IMG/VR virus record: IMGVR_UViG_3300022872_000001
Span: 128,171-192,170 of that record
Direction: 5' to 3' (one strand)
From: a virus
Length of the DNA: 64,000 nucleotides
Under the pieces are notes generated by a model. The model saw nothing but the letters and a program-made list of their open reading frames with translations. It ran no database searches and was not told where the DNA came from. How positions within the stretch are numbered: the first letter of the stretch is position 1; every line of letters starts with the position of its first letter. Made by a program: the position numbers and the translations under genes. Positions 9,168-50,785 of the stretch are shown here, in pieces.

Positions 9168-9375
9168 GGTAAAAGAAATCTCCGTCACAGTATCGAAGAC
9201 CTTTCAATTCAAACAGTTTGAACCATCCCATGTATCAATCACCGAGACCTTAACCCTGGCTCCAGAGGACGATAAGGATGAGGTGAAGAAGAAAAGTTAT
9301 AAACGTTGTAGCGACACGGTAAACGAATTGCTTCTCAAAGAAGGTAAGCGTTACCAAGAAAAGAAAGGTAAATGA
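9160..9375 (+). CDS. Hypothetical protein
   Basis: 71 aa; SD GGAGG; overlaps both neighbours. Confidence 0.65.
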   Translation: MAKVKEISVTVSKTFQFKQFEPSHVSITETLTLAPEDDKDEVKKKSYKRCSDTVNELLLKEGKRYQEKKGK

Positions 9376-10022
9376 TGGTTGAAGAAAATGCATTGCACAG
9401 GAAGTACAGGCCTCAGGTATTAGAAAAGTTAATCGGTCATGAGGCAGCGGTAACACGTATGCAAGGTATGGTGGAGTCTGGTAAGATTCCAAACGCATTA
9501 CTGATTACAGGCCCGTCTGGAGTAGGCAAGACAACGTTCGCCCGAGCCATTCACCATGCAATCAATGGTTTGAAGAATCACCAAGATTATCTGGAAGTCA
9601 ACGCGGGTTCGGAACGTACTATTGATGACGTACGGAGCTGGATTCAAACATCCAAGTTTCGTCCGCAAGGTAAGCGCAGAATCTTGTTAATCGATGAAGC
9701 GCAGGGGTTACTTAGTAATGCCCAAGCTACAGATTGTTTTTCTGGCGACACTGCTGTCCTAACAGATAAAGGAGATCTCACAATGAAAGAGATTCATGAG
9801 ATTACCGATAAAGGCGAGACAATTAAAGTTGCGTCTTTTAATCACAAAACTCAAAAAACGGAATTCAAAGCTGTGGTTGCTTCCCGTAAAAAGGAAAATG
9901 CCAAACCTATGGTGAATATAGGTTTGGCAAGATGTACAGAAGACCATCCTGTGTGGGATTCGGGAATAGCATGTTATGTAGATGCTAAAGATGTAACCTC
10001 TATGTTGACTATCAAAGATTAA
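9372..10022 (+). CDS. dnaX: Clamp loader (DNA pol III gamma/tau-like AAA+) N-extein fused to split intein N-half
   Basis: LHRKYRPQ..E.LIGH, Walker A GPSGVGKTT, Walker B LIDEAQ, then intein block A CFSGDT at residue 122 and block B TEDHP; stop at 10020-10022. Confidence 0.9.
   Translation: MMVEENALHRKYRPQVLEKLIGHEAAVTRMQGMVESGKIPNALLITGPSGVGKTTFARAIHHAINGLKNHQDYLEVNAGSERTIDDVRSWIQTSKFRPQGKRRILLIDEAQGLLSNAQATDCFSGDTAVLTDKGDLTMKEIHEITDKGETIKVASFNHKTQKTEFKAVVASRKKENAKPMVNIGLARCTEDHPVWDSGIACYVDAKDVTSMLTIKD
9735..10019 (+). mobile_element. Split intein N-fragment (95 aa)
   Basis: Begins C1-F-S-G-D-T; contains block B CTEDHPVW; lacks blocks F/G. Confidence 0.88.
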
Positions 10023-10434
10023 AATCTTTTTCACCTGCTAGGAAGCCAGAGTGTAGTCTTCCTAGCCTTTTATAGTCATTTTCCCAGACGTAGATTACAT
10101 TATATCCTAATTGATTTAAGGTTAATAATCGGTGCATTGTCTTTTTATACGCCTCTTTTTTAATTGGATAATTTTTAGGATTACCGTGAAAGTAGTCTCC
10201 TAAAAATTCAAATACTGTTCTTGTTTCTTTGTGGTATCCATCTAACCTTATTTTCTTTCCGTTTAATTCAAGGGTCTTTTCTTTGGATCCGTGTCTTCCT
10301 TTGATACACACGCCATAGTATTCTTGTAATTCATTTATCCAAGCAAAACCTATAGAAGACCTGTCCTGCTTTACCTGTAGTCCTCGTCCAGTCGCATACT
10401 TGTAAATATAGTTGTTAGTAGATTTTAATTTCAT
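10012..10434 (-). CDS. Free-standing Vsr/DUF559-like (EDxHD-type) homing endonuclease
   Basis: RLDGY....RTVFEFLGDYFHGNP...TMHRLLTLNQLGYNVIYVWENDY; SD AAAGGA; AT-rich; antisense between the intein halves. Confidence 0.8.
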   Translation of the reverse strand: MKLKSTNNYIYKYATGRGLQVKQDRSSIGFAWINELQEYYGVCIKGRHGSKEKTLELNGKKIRLDGYHKETRTVFEFLGDYFHGNPKNYPIKKEAYKKTMHRLLTLNQLGYNVIYVWENDYKRLGRLHSGFLAGEKDFNL

Positions 10435-10471: not shown

Positions 10472-10603
10472 ATGAAAACTTATCCGCATAAAATTAAGGT
10501 AGAAAAAACTACCCCTGAAGAGGTCGTTTATGACCTACAGATTGAAGACAATGAGAATTTCTTTGTAAAGGTGGAAGATGGTAGATACGGATTGGTGCAT
10601 AAT
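10472..10603 (+). mobile_element. Split intein C-fragment (44 aa)
   Basis: Ends His-Asn at 10598-10603; Cys codon at 10604; in-frame TAA at 10466 shows it is a separate ORF. Confidence 0.88.
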
Positions 10604-11359
10604 TGTTTGCTGAAGCCTTTGGAAGAACCTAGTCCGTCTACTTTATGGATTCTGTGTTCCATGGATCCGGCTAAGTTCAAAGTTGGTAAAGGTATTGCAA
10701 TCGCAAAACGTTGTACTCAGATTGTTCTTGAACCTCACACGTCGGCTGATCTGTTGAAACAAGCACGGCGTATCGCCAAAGGTGAAGGAATGAATTACGT
10801 CCTGGATGAAGAGAATAAATTACTCAAATCCGTGAGCCGTAATTGTGAAGGTGACATGCGTACCTTGGCAAACATAATGCAGGCAATGCAACAGTATTAC
10901 GATGGCATCAAAGGGAAGAAACCAAAGATGCTATCCAAGGAACACATTGGTGAGGTCATTAATTCCACTACCTCCTCAGATGAGGAACACGCCGTTAAGA
11001 TTCTTACGGCTATCTACGCAGGTTCCTTTGCAGAGGCACAGAAGGCAATTCTGAATATTCAGGATCCCTTCCAAGCTATCCAAAAGATGATGTGGACTAA
11101 TGGTTACGTTATGAACGATAAGGTTCTTAATGGAGCCAGACATCCTAAGGTATGGGGTAGCGCTGCAGGTAAGATGTTGAAAGATAACCTAGCAGCCATC
11201 AAACCAGAAGTTCAATTAGGCGCTCTAGCTATTACCAATGAAGCCTTGGTTGATCTTAAGGCAGCAGTTATGGCAACCGCAGTAGATATTCCTTTGTTGA
11301 TATCTGCCCGTGTTTTCCGTTTGATTAAAACAATTCAACTGACGTACCCAAAGAAGTAA
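10472..11359 (+). CDS. dnaX: Split intein C-half fused to clamp loader C-extein
   Basis: Block F VYDLQIEDNENFF, block G LVHN then Cys+1; extein CLLKPLEEPS (cf. NALLKTLEEP), KRC arginine finger, GDMR sensor 2. Confidence 0.9.
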   Translation: MKTYPHKIKVEKTTPEEVVYDLQIEDNENFFVKVEDGRYGLVHNCLLKPLEEPSPSTLWILCSMDPAKFKVGKGIAIAKRCTQIVLEPHTSADLLKQARRIAKGEGMNYVLDEENKLLKSVSRNCEGDMRTLANIMQAMQQYYDGIKGKKPKMLSKEHIGEVINSTTSSDEEHAVKILTAIYAGSFAEAQKAILNIQDPFQAIQKMMWTNGYVMNDKVLNGARHPKVWGSAAGKMLKDNLAAIKPEVQLGALAITNEALVDLKAAVMATAVDIPLLISARVFRLIKTIQLTYPKK

Positions 11360-44512: not shown

Positions 44513-47500
44513 TTACATCTCTTCGGAAACGTCACGCAATTTTGTGCGACGCAATTTGTTGTACATCTTATTCAGATCTTTTTCATTGGATACCTGAATG
44601 CCAGCCTCCTTGATCTTATTGGCAATAGCTATAAGCTTAGGCATGGTTAAACCAAAATACATAAGAACAGGTTCGCTCAATGCCCATTTAATTCCAGGAG
44701 CCTTCGCACGAATTGCCTTATTGGTGCCAGCTTGACCATGCGCAGGTAATACCAAGTAAGCATGACCATTTTCAAGCAACGGGTACGGCTTGATGATCTT
44801 AGGATCAGAGGAAGGTTTCTGTTCCACGCGGTAGAAGTTACGCAACTGACCTACCGAAGCAAACTTATAGATCAGATTAGGAGTTGATTTACCTTTCTGG
44901 AGCATGGTATGGACTGCACCAAAGGCTTCCTTCAATTCCTTCATCTTGGGGTCAGGCATAAAACCCTTTTCAGCCCATAGTTTCAATTGTTTTTCAAGAC
45001 GCTGCGCATTGGTAATCGGTGCGTAGTAGAACTGTTGAGCAATTGTGAAACCGAGGGATTGGAGAGCATTAGACGCTGCGGAATTCTTTTCATCAATGAA
45101 GTACGACAAACTTAGGAAACCATTGATTACAGACAGAGCTAATTCCACGGACATTGCCTTTTCCAGATCCTTCTTCTGCTTTACCTTATCCTTCTTCAGC
45201 TTATCCAATTCCTGTTGTTTCTGGAGCCTTACATTCTTGGCATCTTGAACCACAGCCACGGCAGGATGGTCAACTGGGGCATCTATCGGCAAATCACCTG
45301 TACCTTTAAGGATCTGGGTACGAATGTCATTAGTCGAAGTGTCCTTACGTGTGATAAGGAAGGTAGAGGAAAATTTGACCCAAATAAAACCACTAGGTAA
45401 ATCTACCTTAACAAAACGTGCCTTCATATCGAAAGCCCGAATAGTTCCTTCACCAAACTCCGTATGCACTACCTGACCAGATAGCTCCTCTTTTATACGC
45501 TTGAAGGATTCCTGTTCGGTAGCTTTTGCGTCCTCAGGTGATTGGTCTTCCTCTTCGTCACCTTCAAGAGCGTCTAACCGGAGATAATCATCCATGCGCA
45601 CCAAACCTAATTGGTCTGTACCATATATTTCCAAACCAGGTGTATAAGGTACGGTATGCATTAGACGAGCATCCTTAGGAACAGGTGCAATCTCAACCGT
45701 TTCAATCTTTAGGTCACCGTGTATCTCACGATATTCCTTATAGTCGTCATACAAACATTGGCGATATTCGGAGTAGGCATTACCGTAAATAGCTAAGGTA
45801 GAATTGCTATCCAAATCATCAGGATTACCCCAGTCATTATGTTCCTGAACTGTGTCCAGAGTCATCTTCATTACAGGGACATCTGGAATGGATTCATACG
45901 TCGTATTGTCTGCATTCTCGAACTTTGCATTGGCAATCAACTTAGAGATCAAACGCGATATCTTGGTAATGTCAATGGTGCGATCGGCCATGACCCAGTC
46001 GAAATAAATCTTAGTACGACGAGATTCCTTCTTGAGTTCAGGACGATTGACACGGGAGTTACCTTGCTCCAATGTACCTGGATTCCAGACAGTTTCGCAA
46101 TTGTGAACAAGTACGGGTGTTATAGGAACGTAACCACTTCTGCCTCCCTGATTGTGAGTAGTTACCGCAAAGTAATTATGGTTACCCTCTACCTCAAGAT
46201 CATATCTATACTTACCAATGGTGTTAACGTTCCTGTTACGCTGAACGTGTATAACCTTTAGATAGTGATTGTTAATAAAGGATTCTAACCTTGCCTTACC
46301 TTTACGTACTGTATCGTTGCTTGCTTCTAAGGCAGCCTTTTTCCTATTAGCCATTACCTGCTTAGATTTATTGGACAGTATCCCGTGCGATTCATAAAGA
46401 TGATTGTGTTTAGTATTGGGATGATCTATAAAATCGCATTTAGGGCATGACCAATCCCCTACACTATCATAAGGAATCACTTCAGAATTTACATCTACCT
46501 TGAACCGAGTAAAATCTCCACCGTAGGTTATTAATTTTTGACCTTTCTTTAAATTCGCAGCCAATACTTCCTCACCACCCTTAAGAATAAAAGGATGGAC
46601 TGACGTGCTTACTATGGAAGATCTTTGGCCGGTTATGCTATCCTCAACAGTGACGCTTACGTACTCATCATCAGGCTGAACAGGAGTTTTCCAACGAGTC
46701 AGAATCCTACGTTTTTCAATCCTCTTATTTTCTAAATCGTAAGATAGTACGTATTTAATATCTGGATTATCTACAATCTCCTTAATGGTAAGGGATTTAT
46801 CGTAATCAATAAGAACTGGGGTTTGACCTGGGAAGCATCTAACCAACCGTGAAGCATGTTGCAAATTCAAACCAGTATTCATGGATTGCTCAACACCAAT
46901 CATGATCTGCTTGGATTCATCATGTTCAAATGCAGCGCCTGCCTCAATCTTATCAGCCGCAACATAAAGAATTGCTTTAGCTTTTAAATCATTAGGCAAT
47001 AGATTATAGATCTCTTCGGCGGAGGCAGTGTAATTAGTAAATACCAAAACTTTACCAGGTATTTGCTGCTCTATATGCTCTCGAATGAGCTCATGAATCT
47101 TGTGTACCTTAGGACTTATACGATCTTCGCCCTTAAGAACTTTATCCCCTAATTCATCACTAGTAGGAGCAGTAATGAATTGTTCCAACCGAGCAAGGTA
47201 AGGACCTAAGATACCTGCCAAGTCTTCATCTGCATCCTCGTCATCTGCGCTTTCATCACCAGGATCTTCCTCCCCTTCACCCTTTGGTTCAACCTTGGAT
47301 TTACCTCCATTAATGAATTCAGCCAAACGCGGAGAGGTCTTGGCCGCTTCTTTAATGGCTTCAATGGTGCGCTCAAAGAGAAGATTATAGATTTCTCGTT
47401 GTGCTTCCGTCAGGTCAACCCGATGGAATTTCTCAATTGCTTGCGGCAATAACGCTGCCCATTCCTTACGCATGGCTCCTGCAACTACTACCCGGGTCTT

Positions 47501-50500
47501 GATGATTTCCGAGATTTGTTGCTGTGCACCTGGTTTCCATTTCAGTACACGATTACCACTTACCTTTTCACCAAAGCGCTCATTAAAGGCGTCCCGGGAT
47601 CCAAAGAGAGTAGGATCTAGCATAGCAATCTGCAAAGCCAGGTCAGATGGCGAATCGTGAGCCATAGTACCAGACGCCAAGCGTTTCTTAGGAATATCTG
47701 CAATTAAAGCCATACAAGCCTTAGTACGGGCTGAATCATTTTTTACAGAATTGTGAACTAAACCTCCATTTACAGAGAATGACGGATGTCCGTCAATCTG
47801 GAGGTTATAAACTTTCGCACTTCCTTCGGACGATTGATAACTGCTTTGTTCGATACGCTTAACACTGTCCACCCTAAGGAATTTAGAAGTTTCTTCTTTT
47901 TTACATCTAAATGCCGTCGAGTTGACATATAGTGGGATGAGCCGTTCACTTCCAAGGCTAACCTTAGTTTCGGCCACGCAAAGTCCACTTTGTAGCAAGG
48001 AGGATACCCGGAGTCCCTTGGCTGTTTCGTAGGTATGGCCAGCTGAAATGTCGCTTTCGGAAACATGTTCATCACTAACTGTTCGCAAGGACTTATCGTC
48101 CCGTTGCCTCCTCGTTTCACAAATCCGTGACCTATTGCTAACAACGTCGAAGATACTTTCGCACGAGTCTTGGGATCCTTCATAGGATTGTTTACCTTCA
48201 TATACTGAGAGTTCCGAGCTCGACCTTCCTTGTAAATCTCTGGATTTTTCTTCTCTTTCTTCTTCTTGGTTTCCATACCCTTCGCATAATTCTCCGAGGT
48301 GTGAATCTTTGCTAGAATTTTTGGCTGAGACATCCTCCATTTCGCTGAGCAAGATGTCCCGCAGAACCTTTGATTCTTCGTTTTTAAATTCTTTTGAACA
48401 AATTCCTGTCGGCAATACTTGCACTTCATTTAATAACTCCTCAGCATAAATCTGACATACGATCTCATCACCTACAACCAGATCCTTAGCAAATATCCAT
48501 CCGCGTTTGGTAAAGAAAGGGTGTTTAGTAGTAGCAGATATAATCTTACCATTATATGCCACTTCAATAATATCCGTATTTAAGGGGAGTGCATGCGTTG
48601 CCTGCACCTTAGAAATACCTATAGCCGAATATATGGAATCCCCGACGTTGATATCCTCGATCTTACGAATTCCTGAGGGAGTGTCGACCTCTGTACCTGC
48701 TAAAAAACAATGACTCTCATCGAGCATCGAATAGCCGAATTTGAATTGACGTAAAAATTCAATAATCGGATAAACGTTTACATTGGTAGTACCATAACAT
48801 ACCTGTTGTTGCCTGTAACGCAGAACATCATAATCAGCAATAACAACGGTGTTACGAGGAGCTGACTGCAAGATTTTACCCAAACGCTCTAAACCATTCT
48901 TACGAACGGTATAGGTATTGATAGGAATGGCATTCAACTTACCATCGGTGAAGAATACGATTTCCTTAACGTACTGTGCAACCAGATGCGGAGGACACAG
49001 GATCAGGTAAGGTTCTGAGCGGTTGGCTTTAATCTCGTATAGGATATCGGTAATGGTTAATACCGATTTACCCCCACCTGCTTGAACAGGAAGAATTGCG
49101 AAGTCTGGCGAATCTTTCAATAGGTTACGCACCTTCTTTTGGTGCGGTAACATAATGTTCTCTTTGCGGAACAATGGAATAGATGGAATTTCCCAAGCGG
49201 CATCTACGGCTTGATTAATGGCTGCCTTACGAATTGTCTCATCCACAGCTTGGGTCTCTGGAAACTTAGGACCATACTTAGCAATGATCGTTAACCATGC
49301 CAAGTTAGAGGCAACGTGGGAAACCGAATACCTGGCATACACAGAATCCAACTGCGCGATAATCGCAGCTTGGGCATTTACACACCAGCGGGACAGACAC
49401 TGAAAAGCAGGATATTCCGAGTGCGGAGTAATATGGGTAAGATTCAGGATCGGATCCTCATCCATACGATCAATTACAGCTTTAACTGTGGCGAGATATT
49501 CGGTGAGACCATGAGTAGACGCTTTGATACTCTCGTAGGCTACCGGATCGAAAGCTTTAATAGCCTGGAGTTCGGCTTCGGTAGGTTCAACCGATTTACC
49601 AATACCTGCTGTTTCTGCCATCGGCAGGAAACGAGTAAACAGGGCAACAATATCCGTGTCACGCTTCATCATATTGATGATGTGAGGAGCCTGTGCTTTC
49701 TTGTACCTCACCAAGTCCAGTACCTTTAGCATACCTGTGGTCTGGGTGAATGCATACTTATTATTCACCCAATCGATCAGTACTGGCACGTTACGCGGTA
49801 AATGAGTTTCTTTGCTCAGAGTCTCCATGGTGCCCGTAGGATCCAAACGATGCAAGGCAAAGGAGTCATCGCCCTCGTATGAACCTGCTAAGCTAAACAG
49901 GTTCTCGTACTTACTGGTATTATCCAGTTTGTAGGGTAAATAAATAGGCATACCTGCAGGATCTATGGATAGGCCATACTCGTCTACCCGTGCGTCTTCC
50001 GACTCTACGGGAGGCAAGGTACGTGCAATCTTAGAGATTGGAAACGAAGACAGAGGATTGGAACCTTGTTGACCAAAACCAGAAGTAGTCCACTGTAACA
50101 TTAACGGATAGAGATCGATATTACGGATTTCCATCCAGTTAGTTGTGGTAAGCTGCTCTGCTTCTGCTTTGGTAATCTTAAAGGTAGCGAAGAAGACACC
50201 TCTATTAGCAGAGTGTTCAAAGGTGACGCTAACAAGGCAACTTTGGAGCGCAGCCAAACCTGCCGCATTCACATTACCCATTGAAGCTATTACCTTCTCC
50301 TTGGTGTAATGTACAGCACCTAAGGTATCAGGTGTTGACGGATTCTGAACGGTCTTTTCCATCAGATTATCAATTCCGAATTTATCCTGATCAGGATTAT
50401 CTTCAGACAGAACTCCTCGCGCCAACATTGCGGCAAGATTTTCTAAACCACCTGCGATGTTGTCGCTATTAACACTCCATAGTGGAACGGATACGGTAAA

Positions 50501-50785
50501 GTGCGGATCAGCGGCATCATTGATTTTCTGAAGACGGGTCAAGCCGGCAGGAGTTTTCTTATGGAAAACTTCCATCACCTTACGGATATCGCGCGCGTCA
50601 GTTCCGTATTTATCGGATTTAACAACCTCTGGAAATACGGAACCTAACCAAAACCGCTGCATAAACGCCATAGGTTTTTCACGGAAACCGCGGTTGTAGA
50701 CATAAAGGAAATTCTTCTTTAACTCTATACGAGGTAACTGAAGAGTTGCAGGCGCAACCAAGTTGGTAGTGACACGTAAAGTCAT
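44513..50785 (-). CDS. Large SNF2-family helicase with two cis inteins (about 1524 aa after splicing)
   Basis: MLPHQ, QAGGGKS, LILCP, LDESH|SVKN, LASGT, VLVFTNY, GLNLQ.ASRLVR|CETVWNPGTLEQGNSRVNR. Confidence 0.9.
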   Translation of the reverse strand: MTLRVTTNLVAPATLQLPRIELKKNFLYVYNRGFREKPMAFMQRFWLGSVFPEVVKSDKYGTDARDIRKVMEVFHKKTPAGLTRLQKINDAADPHFTVSVPLWSVNSDNIAGGLENLAAMLARGVLSEDNPDQDKFGIDNLMEKTVQNPSTPDTLGAVHYTKEKVIASMGNVNAAGLAALQSCLVSVTFEHSANRGVFFATFKITKAEAEQLTTTNWMEIRNIDLYPLMLQWTTSGFGQQGSNPLSSFPISKIARTLPPVESEDARVDEYGLSIDPAGMPIYLPYKLDNTSKYENLFSLAGSYEGDDSFALHRLDPTGTMETLSKETHLPRNVPVLIDWVNNKYAFTQTTGMLKVLDLVRYKKAQAPHIINMMKRDTDIVALFTRFLPMAETAGIGKSVEPTEAELQAIKAFDPVAYESIKASTHGLTEYLATVKAVIDRMDEDPILNLTHITPHSEYPAFQCLSRWCVNAQAAIIAQLDSVYARYSVSHVASNLAWLTIIAKYGPKFPETQAVDETIRKAAINQAVDAAWEIPSIPLFRKENIMLPHQKKVRNLLKDSPDFAILPVQAGGGKSVLTITDILYEIKANRSEPYLILCPPHLVAQYVKEIVFFTDGKLNAIPINTYTVRKNGLERLGKILQSAPRNTVVIADYDVLRYRQQQVCYGTTNVNVYPIIEFLRQFKFGYSMLDESHCFLAGTEVDTPSGIRKIEDINVGDSIYSAIGISKVQATHALPLNTDIIEVAYNGKIISATTKHPFFTKRGWIFAKDLVVGDEIVCQIYAEELLNEVQVLPTGICSKEFKNEESKVLRDILLSEMEDVSAKNSSKDSHLGELCEGYGNQEEEREEKSRDLQGRSSSELSVYEGKQSYEGSQDSCESIFDVVSNRSRICETRRQRDDKSLRTVSDEHVSESDISAGHTYETAKGLRVSSLLQSGLCVAETKVSLGSERLIPLYVNSTAFRCKKEETSKFLRVDSVKRIEQSSYQSSEGSAKVYNLQIDGHPSFSVNGGLVHNSVKNDSARTKACMALIADIPKKRLASGTMAHDSPSDLALQIAMLDPTLFGSRDAFNERFGEKVSGNRVLKWKPGAQQQISEIIKTRVVVAGAMRKEWAALLPQAIEKFHRVDLTEAQREIYNLLFERTIEAIKEAAKTSPRLAEFINGGKSKVEPKGEGEEDPGDESADDEDADEDLAGILGPYLARLEQFITAPTSDELGDKVLKGEDRISPKVHKIHELIREHIEQQIPGKVLVFTNYTASAEEIYNLLPNDLKAKAILYVAADKIEAGAAFEHDESKQIMIGVEQSMNTGLNLQHASRLVRCFPGQTPVLIDYDKSLTIKEIVDNPDIKYVLSYDLENKRIEKRRILTRWKTPVQPDDEYVSVTVEDSITGQRSSIVSTSVHPFILKGGEEVLAANLKKGQKLITYGGDFTRFKVDVNSEVIPYDSVGDWSCPKCDFIDHPNTKHNHLYESHGILSNKSKQVMANRKKAALEASNDTVRKGKARLESFINNHYLKVIHVQRNRNVNTIGKYRYDLEVEGNHNYFAVTTHNQGGRSGYVPITPVLVHNCETVWNPGTLEQGNSRVNRPELKKESRRTKIYFDWVMADRTIDITKISRLISKLIANAKFENADNTTYESIPDVPVMKMTLDTVQEHNDWGNPDDLDSNSTLAIYGNAYSEYRQCLYDDYKEYREIHGDLKIETVEIAPVPKDARLMHTVPYTPGLEIYGTDQLGLVRMDDYLRLDALEGDEEEDQSPEDAKATEQESFKRIKEELSGQVVHTEFGEGTIRAFDMKARFVKVDLPSGFIWVKFSSTFLITRKDTSTNDIRTQILKGTGDLPIDAPVDHPAVAVVQDAKNVRLQKQQELDKLKKDKVKQKKDLEKAMSVELALSVINGFLSLSYFIDEKNSAASNALQSLGFTIAQQFYYAPITNAQRLEKQLKLWAEKGFMPDPKMKELKEAFGAVHTMLQKGKSTPNLIYKFASVGQLRNFYRVEQKPSSDPKIIKPYPLLENGHAYLVLPAHGQAGTNKAIRAKAPGIKWALSEPVLMYFGLTMPKLIAIANKIKEAGIQVSNEKDLNKMYNKLRRTKLRDVSEEM
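46100..46837 (-). mobile_element. Cis intein 2 (246 aa), no nuclease, C2H2-like insert
   Basis: CFPGQT...TSVHPF...YDLEVEGNHNYF...VLVHN|C; central CPKC-x10-H-x4-H. Confidence 0.9.
47750..48709 (-). mobile_element. Cis intein 1 (320 aa) in the DEAH motif
   Basis: CFLAGT...ATTKHPF...VYNLQIDGHPSFSVNGGLVHN|S. Confidence 0.92.
47770..48429 (-). CDS. Nested out-of-frame DUF559/Vsr-like endonuclease inside intein 1
   Basis: CKYC..FCGTSCS Zn motif, NUMOD3-like NPMKDPKTRAKVS, YKVDFAWPKLRLALEVNGSSH...D..K..LL..LGWTVL; SD GAGGAG 7 nt before ATG; shifted by one base from the helicase frame. Confidence 0.88.
   Translation of the reverse strand: MKCKYCRQEFVQKNLKTKNQRFCGTSCSAKWRMSQPKILAKIHTSENYAKGMETKKKKEKKNPEIYKEGRARNSQYMKVNNPMKDPKTRAKVSSTLLAIGHGFVKRGGNGTISPCEQLVMNMFPKATFQLAIPTKQPRDSGYPPCYKVDFAWPKLRLALEVNGSSHYMSTRRHLDVKKKKLLNSLGWTVLSVSNKAVINRPKEVRKFITSRLTDIRHSL

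Follow-up and report, generated by a model that had tools for sequence, protein, structure and literature searches.

A Vsr-like endonuclease gene overlapping a phage helicase intein in the +1 frame: a putative non-canonical homing intein

We analyzed a stretch of 64,000 nucleotides of viral DNA (hereafter the window; positions 128,171 to 192,170 of the IMG/VR record IMGVR_UViG_3300022872_000001), in which the central part of an intein of a jumbo-phage SNF2-like helicase is also read, in the +1 frame, as a separate endonuclease gene. The helicase precursor is encoded on the minus strand at 44513..50785, and all features of this gene described below lie on the same strand. Its translation of 2090 amino acids contains the SNF2-rel_dom domain (46.1 bits vs the Pfam cut-off of 24.9) and two inteins, the removal of which leaves a mature protein with a computed length of 1524 amino acids. 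The first of them, intein 1 (320 amino acids), occupies positions 47750..48709, and the nested gene (219 codons followed by TAA) occupies positions 47770..48429.

Intein 1 starts with C-F-L-A-G-T directly after the codons for D-E-S-H of helicase motif II (48710..48721) and ends with H-N before the codons for S-V-K-N (47738..47749), the Ser of which is the +1 nucleophile. Analyzed alone, it matched the Pfam families Intein_splicing (36.3 bits vs a cut-off of 35.8) and PT-HINT (33.7 vs 27.7), and the intein/HINT profile score rose to 63.6 for the whole helicase protein. All residues of a class 1 intein are there, namely C1, T60-x-x-H63, H319-N320, and Ser at +1; C1, H63 of block B, H319, and N320 are invariant across an alignment of 39 inteins. 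The insertion site was established from the junction motifs, the alignment, and related helicases lacking the intein. Seven IMG/VR contigs encode helicases that are 57–64% identical to the one described here and carry neither of the two inteins. They read DESHFVKN, DESQSVKN, or DESHNLKN at the junction and are 1523–1562 amino acids long, as compared with the computed 1524. In two of these alleles (L010 and L016), motif II is D-E-S-Q, an unusual exchange of the motif II histidine.

The AlphaFold2 model of intein 1 shows two folded lobes with a predicted disordered stretch between them. The N-terminal splicing lobe (residues 1–93, blocks A and B, 48430..48709) is encoded in a single frame, and the per-residue confidence score (pLDDT) is 95–98 over residues 1–95. 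The C-terminal splicing lobe (residues 270–320, blocks F and G, 47750..47902) has a pLDDT of 79–95, and its positions 47770–47902 are dual coding, as they also encode the C-terminus of the endonuclease. The linker in the host frame (residues 128–269, 47903..48328) is rich in Ser, Glu, Arg, and Gln, has a pLDDT below 50, and is predicted to be disordered. Where the middle of aligned inteins shows conservation in the host frame, in a few motifs, these are the shadows of conserved nuclease motifs, and the disordered linker of roughly 140–175 residues would exist only because the same DNA encodes the +1-frame endonuclease. The reading of intein 1 as a split intein was rejected, since one continuous host frame of 2090 codons runs across the nuclease gene.

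The nested gene has its own translation signals. A Shine–Dalgarno-like GAGGAG at 48437..48442, located inside the host codons for A-E-E-L-L-N, is followed by a 7-nucleotide spacer and an ATG at 48427–48429. The TAA stop codon at 47770–47772 lies in block G, eight codons ahead of the C-terminal splice junction. The product matched DUF559 (PF04480) with an E value of 6.7e-9 and 36.0 bits against a cut-off of 20.6, and it has 119 homologues, the best of which is 49% identical. Its AlphaFold2 model has a pLDDT of 92.9, and the predicted architecture joins a zinc finger to a helical DNA-binding region and a nuclease core. The zinc-finger-like N-terminus (48349..48423) contains C3, C6, C23, and C27 and the motif R-F-C-G-x-S-C-S-A-K-W; among 43 aligned homologues, C23 and C27 never vary, while C3 and C6 are conserved in at least 90%. 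The homologue profile gave weak matches to FCS/MYM-type zinc fingers in the PDB (2w0t, E 0.0025). The N-terminal part also has a helical region and the conserved motif N-P-M...K.S, and it gave no NUMOD match in Pfam at E values up to 1; the Cys4 finger stands in place of a NUMOD module or beside it.

The catalytic domain (about residues 114–219, 47773..48090) carries D149, E160, N162, H166, and D175, of which D149, E160, H166, and D175 are invariant in the 43 homologues. The profile built from these homologues matched the DUF559 structure 3HRL (6e-17) and the catalytic domain of I-Bth0305I, 3R3P (1e-5). A Foldseek search with the model also placed 3r3p at the top (probability 1.00, template modelling score 0.77), followed by 3hrl and then by the Vsr structures 1cw0 and 1vsr. 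Thus, what a sequence-only reading of the window had proposed for this locus was confirmed by profile searches of both frames and by structure prediction: normal splicing blocks around a middle part that holds no nuclease in the host frame, and a shifted-frame protein of 219 amino acids with a zinc motif, a DUF559/Vsr-like core, a ribosome-binding site of its own within the AEELLN codons, and a stop codon inside block F/G. No paralogue of the nuclease was found in the window or in the whole 192-kb record.

The prototype among EDxHD homing endonucleases is I-Bth0305I (Taylor et al. 2011, PMC3239194; PDB 3R3P), whose gene resides in a group I intron within recA of a phage. The EDxHD family is recognized by an Asp corresponding to Vsr D51, an acidic residue at the position of Vsr F62, a His corresponding to Vsr H69, and an Asp corresponding to Vsr D97. 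In I-Bth0305I, Asp196 corresponds to Vsr Asp51 and Asn208 to Vsr His64, and His213 and Asp222 complete the site (PMC3239194). Residues Asp196, Glu206, Asn208, His213, and Asp222 of this enzyme align with D149, E160, N162, H166, and D175 of the nested protein. Both proteins share the Vsr-like catalytic fold and a bipartite organization, DNA binding being assigned to the N-terminal part and the nuclease to the C-terminal one; however, I-Bth0305I is encoded by an intron and not by an intein, the identity of the cores is only about 21–24%, and the N-terminus of the nested protein starts with a Cys4 finger. The alignment also bears on the E-V-N-G sequence of the nested core, which the earlier reading had taken as a reason to doubt activity, as E-V-D-G was expected. 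This doubt is weakened, and we rejected E-V-N-G as an inactivating change: the active I-Bth0305I likewise reads E-V-N-G with Asn208, and the essential Asp corresponds to D149, which is present.

To estimate how easily both frames could be open by chance, synonymous codons were shuffled or redrawn in 5000 trials with one of the two proteins held fixed. With the nested protein fixed, the host frame contained on average 10–18 stop codons and was open in 0 of the 5000 shuffles. With the host peptide fixed, the nested frame was open in at most 2 of the 5000. The third frame of 47770–48429 contains 23 stop codons. The chance of about 3e-5 calculated before from stop codon frequency alone was therefore of the right order.

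A host-frame stop codon arises wherever a nested codon ending in T precedes a codon starting with AA, AG, or GA. In the nested gene of the window, none of the 66 such opportunities carries T, which ends 48 of the other 153 codons. The nested relatives show the same avoidance (0/5068), as compared with 28 of 223 in three free-standing relatives. The host frame is thus kept open by a strict wobble rule. For the analysis of selection, 22 non-overlapping pairs of nested loci were compared, and the differences per site were counted by host codon position. In the overlap core, they amounted to 0.469, 0.284, and 0.246 at host positions 1, 2, and 3, and the wobble position of the nuclease (host position 1) was the most variable in all 22 pairs. 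Meanwhile, in the exteins the corresponding values were 0.37, 0.29, and 0.58–0.60, with host position 3 being the highest. This frame-specific comparison indicates that purifying selection acts on the endonuclease frame at the level of the family. Aligned with the nearest relative, the window copy reaches 48.5% identity in the nuclease frame, as compared with 27.5% for the host frame and 28.7% for the non-coding third frame. Selection on the window copy itself is inferred from the family, because this copy has no close relative.

The same layout recurs widely. A tblastn search of GenBank phages returned 40 records with an endonuclease homologue, and in each the match falls beneath a coding sequence annotated as helicase-type or hypothetical; among the features listed under each match, the nested gene is annotated in none of the 40 (for example, OZ196825, MT104474, KJ572844, MG324353, and OZ196571). 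In all five GenBank phages examined (three of Vibrio, one of Pseudomonas, and one of Corynebacterium), a helicase intein holds the nuclease in its +1 frame, and the nearest relative, the 49% identical copy on a contig of 818 bp (L008), is arranged likewise. Scanning IMG/VR with a profile yielded 309 relatives, and the best 80 of them were used for a census of frames. The nuclease lies in the +1 frame of an open reading frame of 683–1879 amino acids at 79 of these 80 loci and is free-standing at the remaining one; none of the 80 has it in frame or antisense. Free-standing relatives occur in the phage contigs L006, L007, and L078. The full-length endonuclease family comprises about 1,015 clusters at 50% identity (E below 1e-30); in a search for in-frame fused forms, the best 150 of these were all 174–353 amino acids long. 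The only in-frame relative found is protein P0122 (L097, 169–3636), a UvrD-like helicase with an intein at V-F-V-D-E/C-L-P-G...L-V-H-N/C-Q-D-L (a slash marks the splice junction). Its host frame holds the catalytic half of the nuclease in the middle of the intein but not the zinc-finger half, and stop codons fill the other frames.

At the IMG/VR loci, nearly all intein junctions are at helicase motif II, distributed over several sites with the forms DE/C...HN/CH, DE/C...HN/SS, DExH/C, and DExHx/C. The DExH/C site of the window is a minority form seen at about three loci. Across L017–L096, the intein–nuclease unit occupies at least four adjoining positions around motif II (after DE, DExH, DExHx, and DEASR), with Cys or Ser at +1, which suggests repeated small shifts of its target site. 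In the pair L087/L094, the identity of the intein DNA is 0.85 vs 0.50 and 0.57 for the flanking exteins, and in another pair it is 0.75 vs 0.50 and 0.47. Over the pairs L087/L094, L022/L023, and L086/L094, the intein DNA is 75–85% identical and the helicase exteins just 47–66%. Such an excess of intein over extein similarity has the signature of a unit that recently moved from one helicase to another, diverged one, as judged from the sequences; as the pairs were picked from BLAST hits, transfer is seen to occur and no rate follows from them. The distribution is also sporadic, the intein being missing from the seven nearest helicase alleles.

The sequence-only reading had put this architecture forward as perhaps undescribed, pending a literature check. 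This does not hold: Gorbalenya (1998), as cited in bioRxiv 10.64898/2026.09.14.751524, had proposed out-of-frame or antisense intein endonucleases, and the architecture itself has already been published (bioRxiv 10.1101/2025.01.02.630785 and PMC11855218), including the work of the Gogarten laboratory in 2025–26. The inteins of actinophages described by that laboratory carry antisense LAGLIDADG, antisense Vsr-like, or same-strand endonuclease VII-like nucleases (bioRxiv 10.1101/2025.01.02.630785). They resemble intein 1 in being contiguous, in having a fold-less in-frame middle and a separate overlapping endonuclease gene, and in their proposed origin, in which a free-standing endonuclease gene invaded an intein; one of their nuclease types is Vsr-like and linked to 3R3P/EDxHD, as here. 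However, their Vsr-like nuclease is antisense, the only same-strand case is endonuclease VII-like and in frame 3, and their host genes are those for polymerase, capsid, terminase, and thymidylate synthase, the arrangement being called rare. The family described here has its Vsr-like nuclease in the +1 frame of the same strand and at helicase motif II, in a layout shared, judging from the IMG/VR scan, by hundreds of contigs.

A cyanobacterial DnaX intein also has a same-strand overlapping gene between the lobes, a disordered host-frame linker, purifying selection in the nuclease frame, a putative Shine–Dalgarno sequence, and, as its inferred origin, the secondary invasion of a mini-intein; it differs in having a LAGLIDADG nuclease in the +2 frame and in belonging to a gene of a bacterial chromosome. 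In fractured genes, a free-standing Vsr-like endonuclease gene stands between the halves of a split intein (Dassa et al. 2009, PMC2677866). These share with intein 1 the nuclease superfamily, the phage setting, the DNA-metabolism hosts, and short overlaps of the nuclease 3' end with the C-terminal intein part, but there the host gene and the intein are broken into two open reading frames and spliced in trans, whereas here the host frame is unbroken. A further parallel is a hidden HNH endonuclease in an insertion of a methylase, where the host frame stays open across a shifted-frame nuclease with its own start and stop codons; that insertion has an HNH nuclease and no splicing domains, so it apparently remains in the host protein. 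In full-text literature searches, no publication turned up in which helicase inteins are overprinted by a Vsr-like nuclease on the same strand. The architecture is thus known, and the endonuclease family appears, from the sequences collected here, to be much larger and more uniform than the literature implies.

We consider it probable, at about 85%, that intein 1 is a non-canonical intein with a separately translated, +1-frame Vsr-like/EDxHD homing endonuclease, including the steps of splicing and homing that the sequence suggests. This reading builds directly on the two open frames, the identities of the domains, the exact insertion site, the selection within the family, the wobble rule, and the recurrence of the +1 layout. 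The helicase precursor would be read through the linker and then spliced via Cys1, the block-B His63, His319–Asn320, and Ser+1, restoring DESH-SVKN. Independently, ribosomes would start at the ATG at 48429 behind GAGGAG and produce a nuclease of 25 kDa, which in a co-infection would cut helicase alleles that lack the intein, close to their motif II codons. Recombinational repair would then copy the intein and the nuclease together. As to the origin, a free-standing endonuclease gene probably entered a mini-intein, and the contiguous form may have survived by the purging of host-frame stop codons. This history, already suggested in the sequence-only reading, is supported by the free-standing relatives, the wobble rule, and the purifying selection on the endonuclease frame.

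Several points weigh against this interpretation. The expression of the nuclease is its weakest mechanistic step: the Shine–Dalgarno sequence is clear in the window and not general in the relatives, being recognizable in just 19 of 74 when the start codons are crudely assigned, a count too noisy for use. An internal promoter is not evident in the intein, where sigma-70-like sites occur at the level expected from shuffling. The residue N162 stands where at least 90% of the close relatives in the 43-homologue alignment have Asp, and its tolerance is argued by analogy with one characterized and distant enzyme. The window copy also lacks close relatives at both levels: its best protein homologue is the 49% identical one, and a blastn search of the region against phages returned only a 260-nucleotide extein match of 67% to Burkholderia phage BCSR5.

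Some of these points could mean that the nested endonuclease is a recently inactivated relic, late in its homing cycle, with the intein being retained for splicing and the +1 frame being open by inertia. Apart from N162, the absence of any close intein-bearing helicase relative fits this view, as the seven nearest alleles are intein-less and there is no sign of recent spread. We nevertheless find it improbable. The gene is complete, with a start codon, a Shine–Dalgarno sequence, and a stop codon; none of the four invariant catalytic residues or of the zinc ligands is missing; the active I-Bth0305I has the same Asn; and the nested protein is predicted to fold with a pLDDT of 93. Moreover, decay of the nested frame would soon show as stop codons, because so few shuffles with the host peptide fixed leave this frame open. 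A reading with an active nuclease that serves the phage, for example by degrading the DNA of competitor phages (marker exclusion or inter-phage conflict), with homing as a side effect, has a precedent in that phage homing endonucleases mediate the exclusion of co-infecting relatives. It would also suit a genome with many mobile elements, one of them a split intein that has a further Vsr-like open reading frame. However, the almost exclusive location of the family in intein interiors (79/80 loci) fits selfish co-transmission, and the data give nothing that separates such service from plain homing. We regard it as very improbable.

The out-of-frame layout could, in principle, also be an artefact of two compensating sequencing or assembly indels, or the nuclease could be reached by programmed frameshifting. 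The in-frame P0122 shows that an intein can carry the catalytic half in the host frame. The census, however, effectively refutes an artefact, as the same +1 offset is found in 85 independent assemblies and isolates. In addition, the nested gene has its own stop codon and a start codon directly before the CxxC finger, an artefact would not be expected to show strict wobble avoidance in the host frame, and a frameshift product would be left without the C-terminal splicing lobe. The probability of either variant is close to nil.

Beyond the homing intein proposed for this locus, we can only tentatively raise a broader idea, which we would sooner doubt than accept. The +1-frame EDxHD lineage might be one ancient and stable intein–endonuclease partnership that radiated over motif II of many superfamily 2 helicases (DE/C, DExH/C, and DExHx/C), with the overlap itself being functional rather than a rare transitional accident. 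If this is true, host-frame translation across the internal start could throttle nuclease synthesis, and the codons shared with blocks F and G could tie the retention of the nuclease to splicing competence. Overprinting would then be the preferred solution, with just the one in-frame relative found, and the constant +1 offset would be explained.

The locus represents a clean case of two proteins encoded by one stretch of DNA, in which a selfish nuclease gene would have entered an intein and left the host gene unbroken. Out-of-frame intein endonucleases are called rare in the literature of 2025–26, and our results suggest that they are common in phage helicases, where annotation missed the nested genes in the GenBank phage records examined. 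The wobble rule (no T before AA, AG, or GA codons) offers a simple signature for finding more cases. The small nuclease itself is a candidate for a new specificity in the EDxHD family, which has one characterized member only.

Three further features of the window deserve mention. The octamer AGTAAATA is present in 11 copies vs 3.1 expected, a number reached in 0 of 100 shuffles, and is a candidate phage promoter box. Its sites include 3432, 7506, 8800, 16603, and 19190; the sole copy near intein 1 is at 47036–47043 on the plus strand, and within the intein none of the 11 window copies is found upstream of where the nested gene starts. The second intein of the helicase (intein 2; 246 amino acids, 46100–46837, minus strand) contains no recognizable nuclease or nested open reading frame and is also missing from the seven related alleles. 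It is inserted at R-L-V-R/C...H-N/C-E-T-V-W-N-P, carries a short CxxC...H..H insert, and matched Intein_splicing with 39.7 bits. Finally, the clamp-loader gene of the window is fractured in the manner described by Dassa et al., with the N-terminal part and IntN at 9372..10022 and IntC and the C-terminal part at 10472..11359, both on the plus strand. Between these halves lies an antisense open reading frame of 140 amino acids (10012..10434, minus strand), whose only similarity is a weak match to the Vsr superfamily (MTES_1575, E 0.028). As the clamp-loader gene is split and the helicase intein is contiguous, both results that the entry of a nuclease into an intein can have are seen in one phage.

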